A program made the position numbers and the translations under genes. A model generated the notes under the pieces. That model ran no database searches, was not told the origin of the DNA, and saw only the letters and a program-made list of their open reading frames with translations. A stretch of 64,000 nucleotides of DNA from Candidatus Eiseniibacteriota bacterium (GTDB taxonomy: Bacteria > Eisenbacteria > RBG-16-71-46 > JABDJR01). Below, piece after piece: positions 4,103-14,229 of this stretch (positions within the stretch are counted from its first letter, which is position 1; each line of letters opens with the position of its first letter). The stretch spans positions 960,001 through 1,024,000 of the forward strand of contig CAWANH010000028.1 of assembly GCA_963783375.1 (NCBI GenBank). The letters are read 5' to 3'.

Positions 4103-4167
4103 ACGGGGACGGGGCAGGATGTCTTCCCCCCGGCGATCGGGGGTCAGGCGTAACCCGGGGGGCGAAC

Positions 4168-6675
4168 ATGATCGTGAAGAGGGCGATGACGAGAACGGCG
4201 GGGATCCGGCTGGCGGCCATGGCGATACTTCTCGCCGCGGCCGCCGGCGCCGCGGCGGCGGCGGAATGGGTCCCCCCCTACGAGCACTCCTTCTACCGCT
4301 TCGCGGCCGAGACCCAGGACGGGGCCTCGACCTTCCTGAACCCCGCCGGCCTGGCCGGTGGGGTGGGCACCAACCTCCTCCTGGAGCTCTCCGGGAACCA
4401 GGACGTCCTGGACGAGTTCGTGGGCGCCATGCAGGGGGGGCCGTGGGGTTTCGCCTACCGGCACCGGGACCTGACCGACGTTCCCCGTTCCAGCATCGAG
4501 GGTGACGCCGTCGTCGCCGACCCCTCCGACGCCGACCTCGACACCTACACCTTCGGGGCGGCGGTGGGCCCGCCGTTGATGAGGATCGGCGTCGCCCGGG
4601 TGTGGGGGAACGTGGACCGCCCGGGGAACGATCTCAGGACCTGGTCCTTCGGTCTCCAGTCGCGCCCCCTCCGCCAGCTCGCGTTCGGCCTCACGGTGGA
4701 GAACCCCGGCCATCCCCGCTACCTCGACGCCCGGCTCGATCCCCGCTACACCTACGGGGCGGCGATACGGCCGCTTCCCGGCTCCCCCGAGCTCCTCACC
4801 CTGAACGTGCAGGGAAGTCACGCCGACGGCTCGAGCCGGATCGACATGGCCTACGGGGCGCGGGTCCTGGCCCCCCGGGGGATCGAGGTGGCCCTGGCCG
4901 TCCACGACCGGAACGGGTTCTCCCCGGAGTTCGGCCTCTCGGTGACCGGGCATTTCGGAAACGGAGCGGCCTCGGCCCGGTCACGGAGCGTGAAGGGAAC
5001 CGGCGAGGACGTCCGGGGCTCGGTGGCGATCCAGGTCTACGACGAGTTCTGGCGGCGGTCGATGGCCGCGAAGCGGAGCGTGGCGGTTCTGCGACTCGAC
5101 GGAACCTACGAGGACACCGCCAGCGGCTTCGTGCTCCTGGGAGGGGAGACCCACGGCGCTCTCGACGTGATCCGCCGCATCCACGACGCGGCCGAGGATC
5201 CCGACGTGAGCGCTCTGGCCCTTCGGATCGGGAACGTCTCCGGGTCGTTCCTGGGCCCGGTGAGCGCCCAGACCGAGGAAATCCGCCATGCCCTGGTCGA
5301 CTTTCGCGGGAGCGGAAAGCCGGTCGTCGCCTACCTGGAGAACGTGGGGGGCGCCCCGGAGATGTACCTGGCCTCGGCCGCCGACCGCATCGTGATGCCC
5401 CCGCTGACCGGGGTCCAGGGAATCGGCGTGTCGGTGCACCTCACCCGCATGAAGCGGATGTTCGAGAAGATCGGGGTGGAGTGGGACGCCGACACCGCCG
5501 GGGTCTACAAGTCCACCTTCCACACCTGGTACACCGACTCCACCTCGGCCGCCCAGCGCGAGGAGATCGAGTCCCTGGTGGACGCGTCCTACCGTCACCT
5601 GATCGACACCATCCAGTCCGCGCGGGGGATAGCCGACCGGGACATGGCGGACATCGGGTCCGGCCGGATCGTCTTCCCCGAGGACTGCGTGCGGATGAAG
5701 CTGGTGGACCGGCTCGGCTGGTGGGACGACGCGCTCACCGAAGCGGGGGAACTCGCGGGCGGCCCCCCCGAAAAGAAGCCTCCGGCCATGCGGCTCCCCG
5801 ACCGCACCTATTGGAGCGAGCGATGGGTCCCGCCCCCCGCGGTGGCCCTGGTCCCGGTCTACGGGGACATCGCCTCGGGGAAGAGCGGCCGGAACTGGCT
5901 CCAGGGAGGTCGCACCATGGGCTCGGATACCGTGGTGGGGCAGCTTCGGGCCGCCGCCGCCTCCCCCGCGGTCCGGGCCGTCGTCCTGCGGGTGGACTCC
6001 GGCGGGGGGGCGGTTCTGGCCTCGGAGGAGATGCGGAAGGAGATCCGGCGGATCAAGAAGGAACGGAAGATCCCGATTCTGGTCTCCATGGGATCGGTGG
6101 CGGCGAGCGGCGGTTACTGGATCTCCATGGACGCCGACACCATCCTGGCCGACGCCATGACGGTGACCGGGAGCATCGGGGTGGTGTGGTCCCTGCCCGT
6201 GCTCCAGAACCTCTACGAAAGGGCCGGCCTGACCTCGGAGACCTTCAAGCGGGGGGAGCACACCGACATGTTCTCCTGGTATCGCCACTACACCCCCGAG
6301 GAAAAGCAGATGCTGGACGCCTCCCTCGACTACCTCTACGACGCCTTCGTCAAGGGGGTGGCGGAGGGCCGGGGCCTTCCCGAGGCCCGGGTCAGGGAGA
6401 TCGCCCAGGGGCGGGTGTACTTCGGGGATCGGGCCCGGGAACTCGGCTTGATCGACGGCATCGGGACGCTCGGGGACGCGGAGAGGGTGGCGGCGGCCAA
6501 GGCGGGGATCGCCGGCGACTATCGGGTGCTCACCTTCGGAGCGCCGGCGCGGACCGGCTTCCTGACCCGGATCCTGGCCCGGGCGGGGCTTCGTTCGCCC
6601 TTCCCCGAAGGTCTCCGGCTGCCGCTCTTCGCCGGCGGAACGGAACCGGCCCCCTCCCTCCCGCGGCTCCAGTAG
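4168..6675 (+). CDS. sppA: Signal peptide peptidase SppA (S49, tandem domains) with N-terminal signal peptide and beta-barrel-like domain
   Basis: AGVYKS (Lys), LRVDSGGG, SMGSVAASGGYWIS (Ser), TGSIGV; N-terminal FLNPAGL and beta-strand pattern; start is ATG 4168 or 4186, not 3148. Confidence 0.85.
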   Translation: MIVKRAMTRTAGIRLAAMAILLAAAAGAAAAAEWVPPYEHSFYRFAAETQDGASTFLNPAGLAGGVGTNLLLELSGNQDVLDEFVGAMQGGPWGFAYRHRDLTDVPRSSIEGDAVVADPSDADLDTYTFGAAVGPPLMRIGVARVWGNVDRPGNDLRTWSFGLQSRPLRQLAFGLTVENPGHPRYLDARLDPRYTYGAAIRPLPGSPELLTLNVQGSHADGSSRIDMAYGARVLAPRGIEVALAVHDRNGFSPEFGLSVTGHFGNGAASARSRSVKGTGEDVRGSVAIQVYDEFWRRSMAAKRSVAVLRLDGTYEDTASGFVLLGGETHGALDVIRRIHDAAEDPDVSALALRIGNVSGSFLGPVSAQTEEIRHALVDFRGSGKPVVAYLENVGGAPEMYLASAADRIVMPPLTGVQGIGVSVHLTRMKRMFEKIGVEWDADTAGVYKSTFHTWYTDSTSAAQREEIESLVDASYRHLIDTIQSARGIADRDMADIGSGRIVFPEDCVRMKLVDRLGWWDDALTEAGELAGGPPEKKPPAMRLPDRTYWSERWVPPPAVALVPVYGDIASGKSGRNWLQGGRTMGSDTVVGQLRAAAASPAVRAVVLRVDSGGGAVLASEEMRKEIRRIKKERKIPILVSMGSVAASGGYWISMDADTILADAMTVTGSIGVVWSLPVLQNLYERAGLTSETFKRGEHTDMFSWYRHYTPEEKQMLDASLDYLYDAFVKGVAEGRGLPEARVREIAQGRVYFGDRARELGLIDGIGTLGDAERVAAAKAGIAGDYRVLTFGAPARTGFLTRILARAGLRSPFPEGLRLPLFAGGTEPAPSLPRLQ

Positions 6676-8358: not shown

Positions 8359-10467
8359 TTGAGCACAGACAGGAAGACCGCCGTGGGTGATAGATTGCCC
8401 CTCGAGGAGGAGGGGAAGGACAGACTGTCCCTCGATTCCGGGGACCCGGCCTCCCGGCCGGAAGTGGACATCTTTCCCGCCGTCGAGAGCGGCGGTGACG
8501 GCTACGCCCTTGCCCCCGAGCTGCCCCCGATCGAACGGGGCGGCGTTCCCCAAGCCGGCTGGGGGGAGGGGGACGACGGGTTCTCTCCGGTGACCGAAGC
8601 GCGTCCCGCCGGCGATGCCGAGGAGCGCGAGGCCTACGGCCGGAGCCTGACCGGCTCCGCCGACGAGGCGCCGGCGACGGAGAGCGTGCTCAGCGACCAC
8701 ATCCTGGGTCTGGACGAGGACGAGACGGAGGAGGAGTCGCCGGGCGAGTCCACTCCCGAGGTCGCCCAGGTTCGCAAGCTCGCCCGCTCCCTCTCCAAGG
8801 CGGTCAAGGCGGTCCGGCTCTATCCGGTGGAGAACCCCATGTGCCGCCGGTTCGCCGATGATCTCGCCGATCGTATCACCGAGACCTTCAAGCTCATGGA
8901 TGCGCTCCGGCTCACCGTCGGGAAGACCAAGCTCTTCTTCACCGGCGAGACGGTTCTCCAGGAGGAAGGCCGCGACGACTCCGTTCCCGCGCGCCTCTTC
9001 TGGGACGGCATCCGGGAGATCTCCTTCCACGTGGGGATCACCCGTCAGGAAGTGCTCGACTTCCTGACCTTGTTCCGCAAGAGCGCGCTCAAGGTGGTGG
9101 ATGGGGAGGACGACTTCGTCACCCTCCTCTGGGAAGGGCGGTTCGAGCACATCACCTACATCGCCATCGACGACATTCTCGATTTCAACAACGCCGAGGA
9201 CCCGATTCCCGAGGAATTCGGGAAGGAGTACATGAACTACGTCGACCTGGAGATGCACAACCTCGAGGACGACGAGGAGACCGAGCGGGCGGCCAACGAA
9301 ATCGCCGAGCAGATCCGGGCCAAGATCCTGGCCGAGGACGATCCCGAGCTGTTCGGAATCAGCCGACAGGAGCGGGAGGCCCTCCTGGAGGAGATCGCCG
9401 AGGAGGAGTCCCCGCGCATCCTGGGCGACATCGTCCGTCTCATCTGCGAGACCCTCTTCCTGGAGAAGGACGAGGCCTCGTTCGTGAGCCTGGTTCAGGT
9501 TCTCTCCGGGGCCATGCTGGGGCTCATCGGGGAAGGGCGGCTCCGCGAGGCCGCCGAGATCATCAACATGCTGCGTGAAATCGGCGCGGACCGGGAGGAT
9601 CTCACCGCCGGCATGTCCACCGTGATCGAGGCCGGGCTCCGGGCCGCCTGGGACGACACCCGCTGCGAATCACTGGCCCGCCATCTCGACGCCGGTCGAA
9701 CCTCGGCCCTGGCTCCCCTGGAGCGCTTCATCCGGGTCCTCCCGGAGGAGGCCATCGGTTCGCTCTGCGAGGTGATGGGCCGGCTGGAGAGTCCCCGGGC
9801 CCGGCGGCGGCTCATCGCCGCCCTGATCGAGAAGGCGGAGGGCAACGTGGTTCCCTTCCTCCCGTTCCTGAAGGACGAGCGCTGGTTCCTGGTCCGGAAC
9901 GTGGCGATCATCCTGGGGGCGATGAAGAGCGATCAGGCGGTGACCCCTTTGAAGGAACTGCTGCGCCACCCCGATTTCCGGGTCCGGCGGGAGGCGCTCA
10001 GCGCCCTGAGCCAGGTCGGACGGGGACGGGCGATGGACGTCCTGGTGGAGTGCCTCTTCGACCCGGATCAGCGAATCCGGGCCGGGGCGGCGCGGAACCT
10101 CGCTCTGAGCGGGCGCCGTGCCGTGCCCAACCTCCTCCTCGTCGTCGAGGAAAAGGATTTCGACCAGCGCGACTTGAGCGAGAAGCGCGCGTTCTTCGAG
10201 GCCCTGGGCTTCGCGGGGGGGAAGGACTTGCTTCCCCTCATGCGCGACGTCCTCGGCCGGAGGAGCCTGTTCCGCCGGACCCAGACCGACGAGCTTCGGG
10301 CCTGCGCCTGTGAATCGTTGGGCTGGATCGGCGGCCCCGAAGCTCAGGAACTCCTCTCCCGGCACCTGGAAGACCGATCCATCCTTGTCCGCACCGCCGC
10401 CCAGTCCGGGCTCCGTCGGATCGCCAAGGGAAGCGGCGGGGAATCGATCGTCAAGGAGGCGGCCTGA
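8359..10467 (+). CDS. HEAT-repeat protein with acidic N-terminal extension
   Basis: Repeats DERWFLVRNVAIILG, HPDFRVRREALSAL, DPDQRIRAGAARNL, DRSILVRTAA; start uncertain (8359 TTG or 8383 GTG). Confidence 0.82.
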   Translation: MSTDRKTAVGDRLPLEEEGKDRLSLDSGDPASRPEVDIFPAVESGGDGYALAPELPPIERGGVPQAGWGEGDDGFSPVTEARPAGDAEEREAYGRSLTGSADEAPATESVLSDHILGLDEDETEEESPGESTPEVAQVRKLARSLSKAVKAVRLYPVENPMCRRFADDLADRITETFKLMDALRLTVGKTKLFFTGETVLQEEGRDDSVPARLFWDGIREISFHVGITRQEVLDFLTLFRKSALKVVDGEDDFVTLLWEGRFEHITYIAIDDILDFNNAEDPIPEEFGKEYMNYVDLEMHNLEDDEETERAANEIAEQIRAKILAEDDPELFGISRQEREALLEEIAEEESPRILGDIVRLICETLFLEKDEASFVSLVQVLSGAMLGLIGEGRLREAAEIINMLREIGADREDLTAGMSTVIEAGLRAAWDDTRCESLARHLDAGRTSALAPLERFIRVLPEEAIGSLCEVMGRLESPRARRRLIAALIEKAEGNVVPFLPFLKDERWFLVRNVAIILGAMKSDQAVTPLKELLRHPDFRVRREALSALSQVGRGRAMDVLVECLFDPDQRIRAGAARNLALSGRRAVPNLLLVVEEKDFDQRDLSEKRAFFEALGFAGGKDLLPLMRDVLGRRSLFRRTQTDELRACACESLGWIGGPEAQELLSRHLEDRSILVRTAAQSGLRRIAKGSGGESIVKEAA

Positions 10468-11921
10468 TGGCTCTGGGCGAACACCTCTCCGCGAGCCTGT
10501 CCGAGGACCCCCAGACCCTGGGCCGGGAACTGGTGCGGGCGTTCCAGGTGGCGCTCCGCACCGCCCGCACCCACGGCTGGAACAACGAGGCCAGCCTGGC
10601 CGCGATGGAGGCCCTGGTCACCGCGGTCAACAACGTGGTCGCGGCCCGCGGGGATTTCGGACTCCACGTGGCCAGCGATTTCCTGTATCTCGACGACGCG
10701 CGGCTCCGCGTGGACACGGCCGGCTACGGGTTCATGGAGGTCCTGATCGGCGAGCTGACCACCCGGGGAGTGGGGAGTCTGTTCATCTCGAGTCGGACCA
10801 CCGCGGACCAGGTCCGCCAGCTGGTGGACGTCCTGAACGAGCAGTCGGTGGGAGACGAGGAGACCGCCGCCCTCATCAACCAGAAACTGGACTCGTTCGA
10901 GTCGCCGTTCGCGGTGGGTCCGGTCCGGGAGATGAACGATCTCCTGAGCCTCGAGACCCAGCAGGTGGACCGGCGGGAGCGGTGCAAGAAGGCGTTCTTC
11001 AAGGCGGTCACCGTGACCAAGGCGATCATGGCCCAGGCCCATCTGGGAAAGCGGCTGGAGCTCCGGCACGCCAAGCGGGTGGTGCAGGACATGGTCGATC
11101 TCATGATGGACGAGGAGTTCACCCTGCTCGGCCTCACCACCCTGAAATCCCACGACAACTACACGTTCTATCACTCGGTGAACGTCTGCATCTACTCCCT
11201 GGCCCTGGCCAAGCGGGCCGGCTTCACCCGCACCCAGCTGGCCGAGCTGGGGGTGGCCGCGCTCTTCCACGATCTCGGCAAGTCCAAGATCCCCCTCGAA
11301 ATCCTGCGCAAGCCGGGGGCGTTCACCGCCGGGGAGTGGGACGTCATGAAGACCCATCCCGAGATGGGGGTGAAGGAGCTGGTCCGGATGCGGGGGCTGT
11401 CCGCCCTGGCCTTCAAGTCCATGCTGGCCTGCTTCGAGCATCACCTGAACTACAATCAGGCTCCCGGGGGCTACCCCCGGTTGCGCAAGCCCTATCGTCC
11501 CCATCCCATCGGTCGGATCGTGGCCGTGGCTGACGCCTTCGACGCCATGACCACCAAGCGGGTCTACGTCAAGAAGGCCACCCCGCGGGACAAGGCGCTC
11601 TCGTACATGATGAGCCAGGCGGGGAGCAAGTTCGATCCGGTACTCATGCGGCTCTTCGCCAACATGATCGGGGTCTTCCCGGTGGGGACCGCGGTCCGGC
11701 TCAAGAGCGGCCGCTTGGCCGTGGTGCTCGCGGTGGCCGAAGACTCGAACCTCTGCCACCGGCCGGTGGTGCGGCCGGTCACCGACGAGAACGGAATCCA
11801 GCGGGAGTACCCGGAAATCGACCTCTCCAAGAAGGGCGCCGAAGGCGCCTATCCGGACGAGGTCCAGGCCACCGTGGACGCGGAGGCCCTCGGGCTCGAC
11901 ATCTCCAAGTATTTCATCTAA
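10467..11921 (+). CDS. HD-GYP domain phosphodiesterase
   Basis: HSVNV, HDLGK, HP..G, EHH...GGYP, ADAFDAMT; TGATG overlap with the HEAT gene. Confidence 0.88.
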   Translation: MALGEHLSASLSEDPQTLGRELVRAFQVALRTARTHGWNNEASLAAMEALVTAVNNVVAARGDFGLHVASDFLYLDDARLRVDTAGYGFMEVLIGELTTRGVGSLFISSRTTADQVRQLVDVLNEQSVGDEETAALINQKLDSFESPFAVGPVREMNDLLSLETQQVDRRERCKKAFFKAVTVTKAIMAQAHLGKRLELRHAKRVVQDMVDLMMDEEFTLLGLTTLKSHDNYTFYHSVNVCIYSLALAKRAGFTRTQLAELGVAALFHDLGKSKIPLEILRKPGAFTAGEWDVMKTHPEMGVKELVRMRGLSALAFKSMLACFEHHLNYNQAPGGYPRLRKPYRPHPIGRIVAVADAFDAMTTKRVYVKKATPRDKALSYMMSQAGSKFDPVLMRLFANMIGVFPVGTAVRLKSGRLAVVLAVAEDSNLCHRPVVRPVTDENGIQREYPEIDLSKKGAEGAYPDEVQATVDAEALGLDISKYFI

Positions 11922-11996: not shown

Positions 11997-12025
11997 TTGA
12001 CAGCTTCTCCCCCCTCCCCTATCCT
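11997..12025 (+). promoter_or_regulatory. Sigma70-type promoter for the lipoprotein/barrel pair
   Basis: TTGACA (11997-12002), 17-nt spacer, TATCCT (12020-12025). Confidence 0.65.
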
Positions 12026-12119: not shown

Positions 12120-12593
12120 GTGCACATACGGCGAACGGCCATCGGATTCCTGGCCTCGATGCTGGTCCTGGCGGCGGCCGGATGCACGAAGCTGGTGCCG
12201 GCGTCCATCAGCGACTTCGGAGCGGAGAAGACCGTGGTGGTCACCCTGCGGGATGGCGAGACCATCAAGGGGCACCTGGCTCGGGGAGAGCAAGTGACCT
12301 TCACCACCTTCGGCCGGGTCTACCGCGCCACCGTCGAGGAGGCGGACGAAACCGGTATCGTATTGTCCAAGCCGTACATCCAGGAGGAGTACGAGCGCTA
12401 CCGCATCCAGCGCGAACGGATGGAGGGCGCGGCGCTCCATATCCGCGACGAGACCGAACGCATCACCATTCCCGCCTACAAGATCGTCAAGGTGGACGAG
12501 GTGGCGATCGACAAGATGAAGTCCGCCCGGGCCGGGGGGTTCTGGGGGTTCACCGTCTTCGTCTTGGCCAAGATCATGAGTGCTCGGCTCTAA
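12120..12593 (+). CDS. Putative lipoprotein, hypothetical
   Basis: GTG start after GGGAGG; basic n-region, hydrophobic h-region, AAAG-C lipobox; hydrophobic C-terminal helix. Confidence 0.72.
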   Translation: MHIRRTAIGFLASMLVLAAAGCTKLVPASISDFGAEKTVVVTLRDGETIKGHLARGEQVTFTTFGRVYRATVEEADETGIVLSKPYIQEEYERYRIQRERMEGAALHIRDETERITIPAYKIVKVDEVAIDKMKSARAGGFWGFTVFVLAKIMSARL

Positions 12594-12627
12594 CGGGCTT
12601 CGTGACCGCCGAGTGGAGGGTCCTGCC

Positions 12628-14229
12628 TTGAAGTCATTCGCGCGTTTTCTGATTTCGGCCCTGGCCGGGGTGTCGATCCTCGCCGCCGCGCCGCCGGCGC
12701 GAGCCCAAACCGGGAGCAGTGCTTCCACCGACACGTTGAGCGTGGTCGGTCGGTCCTCCTGGGAGGCCGGTTTCCTCTCCATCTTCAATTTCGACCGGGT
12801 TCCGGTGGGCGCGCGGATGACGTCCATGGGGGGGGCCGGGATGGCGCTGGCCGGCGGGCCGGAGTACATGAGCCTGAACCCCGCCGCGCTTCTGGGAGTG
12901 GAGCGGCCCCAGCTGGAGTCCTCGGCCGTTTTCTATTCGGGCGGCACCTCGATCCAGGCCTTCCCCGAACTTCTCGACATCGGGCGGGCCCAGTTCCTGC
13001 AGAGCAAGGACTACCGGGTGAGCCCGTCCACCAAGCTGAACTACAACAACCTCTCCCTGGGCCTGCCCATGGTGATTCTGGGCGGCCGGGGAGGGCTGGG
13101 ACTGACCTACCGGCGCGAAGCCCGGACCGGCGAGGGATCCGAAGTCCGCGCCGTCCTCAAGGGGCCGTTCGCCGCGGGCCAGGAAGTGAACTTCGGCCGG
13201 GGGGACAAACCCGACGACGGCGTGGACGCCATCAGCCTGGGGGCGGCGCGATCGTTCGGGGGTTCCTTCGACCTGGGACTCGCCCTGAACTGGCAGACCG
13301 GCACCCTGCATCGCTCCGAGTCGTACGGGCTCTCCCAGTTCGGATTCGAATTCCTGAACGGAGGCTACAACTTCAGCCAGGACGTCTCCGGCTTCAACGT
13401 CGACCTGGGGGGGCGCGCGCACCTGGGACGGCTGCTCCTGGCCGGATCGATCCAGACGGCCCACGACCTGAACTTCAAGAACGGGTTTGCGAGGGTGGTC
13501 CCGGTACCCAACGATCTCGTGGAAACCAAGATCCTCGCCTACACCACCCTTCTCGATCACACGCTCTCGATTCCCACCGTCCTGGGGTTCGGCTCGGCTC
13601 TGGATCTCAGCGATCGGCTGACCCTGGTCGGCGACTACTGGATCCGCCCCTGGAGCAAGGTGGACGTCACCCGCCAGGAGATCACTCCGGAGATCGGCTT
13701 CTCCAACCCGCAGGACTCCACCAGCTACTTCATCAAGCTCGCGAACGGCAGCGGGACGGAAACCTTCAGCGCGGGGTTGGGGGACGCCAACAGCCTTCGC
13801 CTGGGCCTGGAGTACGCTCTGCATCGCTCGGCCCGGGTCCAGATCCCGATTCGTTTCGGATACCGTACGGAAAAGCTGGCCCTCAGCAACACCGTGATCC
13901 CCGGGAGCTATCAGTACTACACCGCAATGATCCGACGCTATTTCGACGGTGACGCCGCGGTGGGAGATTCCCTCCTCTACGTGGCTGAATTCTCCAACCT
14001 GGCGTTCCGGGGGAGCCCGGTCAAGGCCTCCGCTATCACCTTCGGGCTCGGGGTGGATATCGACGATTTCAGCGCCTCCCTCTCGGTGGAGCGGAAGAGC
14101 TACGACATCAACAACTTCTACCTCTACGGGTTCAACCCCGATCCGAAATACAATGCGAGCTTCCCCGCGGTCACCTCCGAGACCCGGCACATCCTCACCA
14201 TCGGTCTCACCTCCCGCATGCGGTTCTGA
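12628..14229 (+). CDS. Outer-membrane beta-barrel, FadL/PorV-like
   Basis: TTG start after GGAGG; signal peptide; VGARMTSMGGAGMA...LNPAAL signature; amphipathic strands; C-terminal Phe. Confidence 0.75.
   Translation: MKSFARFLISALAGVSILAAAPPARAQTGSSASTDTLSVVGRSSWEAGFLSIFNFDRVPVGARMTSMGGAGMALAGGPEYMSLNPAALLGVERPQLESSAVFYSGGTSIQAFPELLDIGRAQFLQSKDYRVSPSTKLNYNNLSLGLPMVILGGRGGLGLTYRREARTGEGSEVRAVLKGPFAAGQEVNFGRGDKPDDGVDAISLGAARSFGGSFDLGLALNWQTGTLHRSESYGLSQFGFEFLNGGYNFSQDVSGFNVDLGGRAHLGRLLLAGSIQTAHDLNFKNGFARVVPVPNDLVETKILAYTTLLDHTLSIPTVLGFGSALDLSDRLTLVGDYWIRPWSKVDVTRQEITPEIGFSNPQDSTSYFIKLANGSGTETFSAGLGDANSLRLGLEYALHRSARVQIPIRFGYRTEKLALSNTVIPGSYQYYTAMIRRYFDGDAAVGDSLLYVAEFSNLAFRGSPVKASAITFGLGVDIDDFSASLSVERKSYDINNFYLYGFNPDPKYNASFPAVTSETRHILTIGLTSRMRF

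Follow-up and report, generated by a model that had tools for sequence, protein, structure and literature searches.

Why is the gene for a HEAT-repeat protein tied to the gene for an HD-GYP domain protein, and what would the two products do for each other? This question is raised by positions 8359 to 11921 of a stretch of 64,000 nucleotides from Candidatus Eiseniibacteriota bacterium (assembly GCA_963783375.1, contig CAWANH010000028.1, positions 960,001 to 1,024,000 of the forward strand), here called the window, to which the coordinates below refer. Judged from the sequences, the pair probably encodes a phosphodiesterase of cyclic dinucleotides that is made of two subunits: the HEAT protein would bind and control the HD-GYP protein, and the latter would cut cyclic GMP-AMP (cGAMP) and/or cyclic di-GMP (c-di-GMP). 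That the two genes form one functional unit is very probable, and a stable complex of both proteins is likely. Contact between them through a domain that both carry at the N-terminus (N-domain) is proposed more tentatively.

A coupled gene pair in several phyla

The reading frames meet in a TGATG, and the ribosome-binding site of the HD-GYP gene sits within the KEAA-encoding end of the HEAT gene. The features of the pair are the following:

8383..10467, + strand: HEAT-repeat gene, 694 amino acids from GTG 8383 (702 amino acids from TTG 8359)
8383..8748, + strand: acidic N-terminal tail of the HEAT protein, 27% Asp plus Glu, poorly conserved, likely disordered
8749..9183, + strand: N-domain of the HEAT protein (HEAT-type copy), residues ~131-275, with the motifs LYP, DGIREISF and DDFVTLLWE
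9193..9408, + strand: acidic linker of the HEAT protein, 36% Asp plus Glu, kept in close relatives
9409..10428, + strand: helical solenoid, Pfam HEAT_2 (E 4e-28, 4 stretches) and HEAT_PBS
10453..10469, + strand: ribosome-binding site AAGGAGG (10453-10459) and TGATG (10465-10469)
10467..11921, + strand: HD-GYP gene, 484 amino acids
10500..10931, + strand: N-domain of the HD-GYP protein (HD-type copy), residues ~12-155
10950..11135, + strand: two long helices ahead of the catalytic domain (residues 162-192 and 199-223), likely dimer helices
11145..11666, + strand: HD-GYP catalytic domain with DNYTFYH (Tyr232), HD 268-269, KPG, EHHL...GGYP, D356 and RVYV 365-368
11667..11918, + strand: small C-terminal beta domain of the HD-GYP protein, without Pfam family, retained across the family and the fusions

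Translation of the HEAT gene probably starts at GTG 8383 rather than at TTG 8359, as AGGAAG lies 6 nucleotides upstream of the former and a homologous database record (P0033) also has 694 amino acids. In the HEAT protein Pfam and NCBIfam annotate the repeats, in the HD-GYP protein the HD domain, and nothing else in either. One named homologue, at 54% identity, points to Candidatus Eisenbacteria as the probable host.

The TGATG coupling, seen already in the preliminary description, is not a peculiarity of the window, since in 127 of 138 pairs a start codon falls between -14 and +5 of the stop codon of the HEAT gene. Moreover, the gene-pair survey confirmed that the adjacency is conserved in the own phylum, in Gemmatimonadota and in metagenomes. 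The N-domain is present in 37 of the 41 genomes of the phylum, and its 112 matches comprise 55 tandem pairs, the remaining 2 being HEAT genes that stand alone; 35 of the 37 genomes carry 2, 4 or 6 copies, i.e., the pair was duplicated as a unit. A HEAT gene followed by an HD-GYP gene was found in three checks within the phylum (30/30 loci, 40/42 genes and 58/60 loci), in 74 of 80 Gemmatimonadota loci, the other 6 reaching contig ends, in all of 75 further Gemmatimonadota loci, and in 63 of 80 metagenomic loci, the other 17 being truncated. The pairing persists across phyla at 20-30% identity and the flanking genes differ between lineages. A functional tie to adjacent genes (aldolase, MGMT, trpB/trpA) was dropped for this reason.

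Some observations from these surveys concern individual loci. The lone HEAT paralogues L032, L033, L156 and L157 belong to family f5, two of them with a degenerate LYP motif, and L032 and L033 have the same small repeat-like protein gene nearby. The divergent N-domain HEAT paralogues of Gemmatimonadota (L292, L294, L371-L385) include three loci with a tandem two and two loci upstream of a PAS-GGDEF gene. At L078:3745-8938 (Gemmatimonadota) the pair has a PALP-family gene, which is likely trpB, on one side and trpA on the other. Frameshifts in HD-GYP, HEAT and GGDEF genes (L004 in G027, L061 in G055, G000:C17:52564-53041) reflect assembly errors or pseudogenes.

The shared N-terminal domain and its architectures

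The preliminary description had reported colinear N-terminal segments in both proteins, and the peptides quoted for them are all present in the translations. Pairwise BLASTP of the two proteins detects no N-terminal similarity, and hhalign with narrow alignments gave 32.7% and 85.9% (reversed control E 0.16). With deep alignments hhalign gives 99.0% (E 7.5e-18) for the two N-domains over 131 columns. Furthermore, among 27,891 six-frame open reading frames of the genome each N-domain profile retrieves its own gene and the partner, and nothing else (E 1.5e-6 and 3.5e-7). By profile comparison the N-termini of ~140 residues are homologous.

AlphaFold2 predicts the HEAT-type copy as a compact alpha/beta domain (pLDDT, the predicted local distance difference test, 91; pTM, the predicted template modelling score, 0.87) with the order H-H-E-E-E-H-E-H-H-E of helices (H) and strands (E), and the HD-type copy has an almost identical element order in the model of the full enzyme. 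Searches with the HEAT-type model returned no Foldseek match at E<=0.001, and the best hit of a wide structure search had Z 4.7 (root-mean-square deviation 4.2, 75 aligned) with none at Z>=5, by which a new fold is not proven. A PDB sequence search with the N-domain profile gave just short repeats or chance rows, and no Pfam family was common to more than one of 40 N-domain copies. Domain catalogues do not list it, and none of the solved folds matches it clearly. It is nonetheless abundant, the joint profile matching 10,725 clusters at 50% identity (E<=0.001). An atlas comparison placed it next to unnamed clusters (0.89-0.91) and weakly next to DUF3391 (0.76), the latter being a lead only.

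The architectures were surveyed in the top 150 representatives, a set enriched for two-copy proteins. Fourteen of them are single chains in which N-domain, HEAT repeats, N-domain and HD domain are fused (P0073-P0078, P0082, P0083, P0086, P0097, P0130, P0173, P0174 and P0091), P0091 being reversed in order; P0071, with a junction that looks frameshifted, and the truncated P0096 were left out of this count. One fusion cluster carries the name Deltaproteobacteria, and several fusions have long unassigned N-terminal extensions. Seven further representatives are GGDEF-AAA_16 proteins with two N-domains, with or without HEAT repeats; this family has 62 relatives, several of them named Gemmatimonadota, and the canonical Asp is present in 59 of 59 long members. 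The N-domain is thus associated with proteins that make cyclic dinucleotides as well as with those that break them. The GGDEF-STAND-type ATPases (P0131, P0146, P0163, P0169, P0188, P0217; P0222-P0282) are ~1400 amino acids long with two tandem N-domains and HEAT repeats, and one has an additional SpoIIE phosphatase.

In a tree of 82 N-domain copies all 35 HEAT-type copies fall on one side (Shimodaira-Hasegawa-like approximate likelihood ratio test 94), and each fusion keeps one HEAT-type and one HD-type copy. The tree was built by a quick method only, with three long HD-type rows unresolved and one intended pair absent. The separation indicates that the duplication is old and that the two types stay distinct, which in terms of sequence is as expected for a heterodimer, not proof of one.

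The HD-GYP enzyme and its putative substrate

The metal ligands, described before as intact, are all present (H236, H268, D269, H297, H325, H326 and D356) and conserved in 317-326 of 327 family rows, with gaps accounting for most of the exceptions. Unfused pairs also retain the Lys of KPG, the Tyr of GYP, Arg365 and Tyr367. Four residues ahead of the first His, where Glu or Asp marks the trinuclear HD-GYP subclass (Galperin and Chou, 10.1101/2021.11.05.467447), the enzyme has Tyr232, and Tyr is found there in 308 of the 327 members. This places the enzyme in the binuclear class, which usually halts at the linear product (Galperin and Chou, 10.1101/2021.11.05.467447). The motif HHExh(D/N)GxGYP keeps HH and GYP, with Leu327 in place of Glu and an insert of 2 residues; the Glu is replaced throughout the family, by Met or Leu in 288 of 327 members. 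The guanine-reading motif RxY[K/R] reads RVYV (Val368); across the 327 pairs Lys or Arg is kept in 94 (Arg 62, Lys 32), and the other common residues are Gln (146), His (25) and Asn (11). The other six HD-GYP proteins of the genome all have RxYR or RxYK, so that the loss is unique to the paired enzyme among the seven.

PmGH is a GAF-HD-GYP protein and RpfG a REC-HD-GYP protein. The best PDB sequence matches of the window enzyme are the HD-GYP phosphodiesterases V-cGAP3 (5Z7C, E 1e-38) and PmGH (4MCW, E 3e-35), with which it shares the catalytic domain; compared to these two and RpfG it lacks GAF and REC, has Tyr at the third-metal position and Leu/Met instead of Glu after HH. The preliminary description had stated that the HEAT protein replaces the usual REC/GAF input. 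No Pfam REC or GAF family is found in any of 88 members, which upholds one half of this statement; its wording is too loose, as the enzyme is nearer to the Bd1817 architecture, DUF3391-HD-GYP (PDB 3TM8, PA4108, VC2497), with a different cap. The Bd1817 family likewise has a cytoplasmic HD-GYP domain behind long helices and a cap that is neither REC nor GAF, and 3TM8 matches the fold of the whole window enzyme (E 1e-6). It is not among the listed fold matches of the N-domain model, a search made with the HEAT-type copy and not with the HD-type copy alone. However, DUF3391 consists of four strands followed by two helices, whereas the window cap is a helix-first domain of ~140 residues that also occurs on the HEAT partner, and for the Bd1817 family no partner gene is described in the main text of Galperin and Chou (10.1101/2021.11.05.467447). 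DUF3391 reaches 14.4 bits on the window enzyme (cut-off 27.8) at residues 103-201, and its 21 weak matches across the 88 members are all below the cut-off (best E 0.0045), covering the end of the N-domain and the following helices. These matches give the enzyme the look of a Bd1817-type protein whose cap is a different one.

With regard to the substrate, it was reported that Gln or Asn at the fourth position of Rxx selects cGAMP (Wright et al., 10.1101/600031). The window enzyme has Val368 at this position; Gln or Asn is found in 157 of the 327 relatives, and Gln in 135 of 147 Gemmatimonadota pairs. The cGAMP phosphodiesterases PmxA and Bd2325 have likewise lost the Lys/Arg of Rxx(K/R), although PmxA is a membrane Cache-HAMP protein (Wright et al., 10.1101/600031). 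A switch of specificity is known for PmxA Q518R. A possible source of cGAMP is a GAF-GGDEF protein encoded elsewhere in the genome and not linked to the pair (G000:C29:519566-520594, - strand; L416/L417), which has the GGDEF motif, a Ser at the base-reading site and a Tyr at the cross-dimer site. Tyr and Ser mark Hypr cyclases, as in GacA Y304/S348 (Hallberg et al.), and they are 44 residues apart in both proteins. The GAF-GGDEF protein was matched in 38 of the 41 genomes of the phylum, all 30 loci that were read have the Ser, and the protein is by these residues a candidate phylum-wide cGAMP synthase. As Lys/Arg is lost in this HD-GYP alone and a cyclase with the Hypr signature is kept across the phylum, cGAMP is a plausible substrate; that it is a main one has somewhat less than an even chance. 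The Gemmatimonadota GGDEF proteins L400, L401 and L403 have Asn at the base-reading position, and the paired HD-GYP of this phylum is mostly RxYQ.

Proposed mechanism, rival readings and significance

HD-GYP structures show dimerization through long helices. By analogy, the paired enzyme may dimerize via its long helices, while co-translation through the overlap would supply both proteins in roughly equal amounts. The HEAT protein would possibly bind the HD-GYP dimer through paired N-domains, its solenoid and acidic linker holding the enzyme and setting its activity or location. More speculatively, loss of the guanine-reading Lys/Arg might relax the specificity or shift it towards cGAMP from the Hypr-type GAF-GGDEF. 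An extended proposal sees the N-domain as a pairing module with a new fold, in which HEAT-type and HD-type copies heterodimerize, the HEAT protein is the regulatory subunit, the HD-GYP protein erases the cGAMP of the Hypr cyclase, and lone N-domain HEAT proteins as well as the GGDEF-STAND proteins with two N-domains and HEAT repeats join by partner exchange; taken as a whole this is unlikely.

Several results weigh against a two-subunit phosphodiesterase acting on cGAMP. The pair loci were chosen by best score, the sets partly overlap, some genomes were sampled twice and kin are not independent. The best matches of paralogues agree between the two proteins in just 80 of 119 cases, four lone HEAT copies exist in the own phylum, and a divergent Gemmatimonadota class of N-domain HEAT proteins has no HD-GYP at 17 of 17 loci. 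Inter-chain coevolution on 327 pairs (about 204 effective sequences, underpowered and with weak within-chain signal too) gave no signal between the chains: the top z between the N-domains was 4.5 compared to 5.2-6.2 in the null, these pairs made up 2 of the top 50 compared to 6-7 in the null, and the top z of the whole chains (10.0) was equalled by 10-15% of 40 permutations. Ten fusions in which the metal ligands are kept have lost the Arg of RxY, and mostly GYP too, and may act differently. Regarding cGAMP, Val lies outside the signatures that were tested (Gln/Asn), Arg persists in 50 of 125 own-phylum pairs even though the Hypr cyclase is present in those families as well, and no Ser was seen in 24 of 30 GGDEF proteins read from four Gemmatimonadota genomes.

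Alternatively, the N-domain might be a shared sensor that binds the same small ligand or partner in two loosely coupled proteins, the HEAT protein then being a locally served output or receptor and not a stable subunit. The absent coevolution between the N-domains fits this, as does the occurrence of the domain on GGDEF-STAND proteins and on HEAT proteins that stand alone, of which 2 in 17 lie ahead of a PAS-GGDEF gene. However, the conserved overlap and fusions in both orders better suit a stoichiometric partner, and the few invariant residues of the HD-type copy speak against a common small-ligand pocket, making this quite unlikely. It is improbable that the HD-GYP protein instead binds a nucleotide as a receptor or hydrolyses a different substrate (pGpG or some other nucleotide), with the HEAT protein carrying the output. 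Such a role would suit the column after HH, where Met (210) and Leu (78) prevail and Glu is not among the six commonest states of the 327 pairs, the very variable fourth RxY position and the loss of GYP and RxY in fusions; it is opposed by the conserved metal ligands and the Lys, Tyr and Arg named above, and by the activity of an RxxS HD-GYP enzyme (personal communication in Galperin and Chou, 10.1101/2021.11.05.467447). Finally, a linkage without function, in which the N-domain is left over from an old duplication and the genes are simply inherited side by side, is very improbable, for although the correlation of HEAT and HD-GYP distances (r 0.77) is expected of any adjacent genes and the contact is only predicted, the pairing across phyla, repeated duplication as a unit, changing neighbors and fusions speak against it.

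Among known systems, a two-subunit phosphodiesterase recalls Shewanella HnoD/HnoB, where a separate protein also tunes c-di-GMP hydrolysis; in that system the regulator is an inactive HD-GYP and the enzyme an EAL protein, whereas here a HEAT protein pairs with an HD-GYP bearing its metal site. The HEAT repeats are of the type of the PBS-lyase proteins CpcE/F and NblB. In contrast to these, the window protein reaches only 18-34 bits (NCBIfam cut-offs 220-330) and has the additional N-domain; a role as phycobilin lyase (CpcE, CpcF, NblB) was rejected on these scores, and the window region examined has no phycobilisome context. Literature searches brought up no work on a HEAT/HD-GYP pair, the few papers with HD-GYP as well as HEAT terms dealing, judged by title, with different topics, and the shared N-domain is not described in the main text of Galperin and Chou (10.1101/2021.11.05.467447), whose tables or supplements could list the architecture.

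Around the pair, window positions 4141-6675 encode an SppA-like peptidase of family S49, whose long N-terminal region belongs to no Pfam family, and 12120-14229 a small LSM-like protein, the start of which resembles a signal sequence, as well as an outer-membrane barrel (weak BamG/PorV matches). A sigma-70-like site (11997-12025) precedes the latter stretch; one such site downstream of the pair and zero upstream are uninformative.

HD-GYP enzymes are known to be governed by sensor domains within the same chain. If true, a subunit dedicated to this task, with a gene and a domain family of its own, would add a novel mode of control, and through the Hypr-type cyclase cGAMP signalling would reach into the present phylum. 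Because fusions occur naturally and the domain is small and well folded, the pair is easily tested. It is widespread, uncharacterized and near-core in two little-studied phyla (37/41 and 75/101 genomes).

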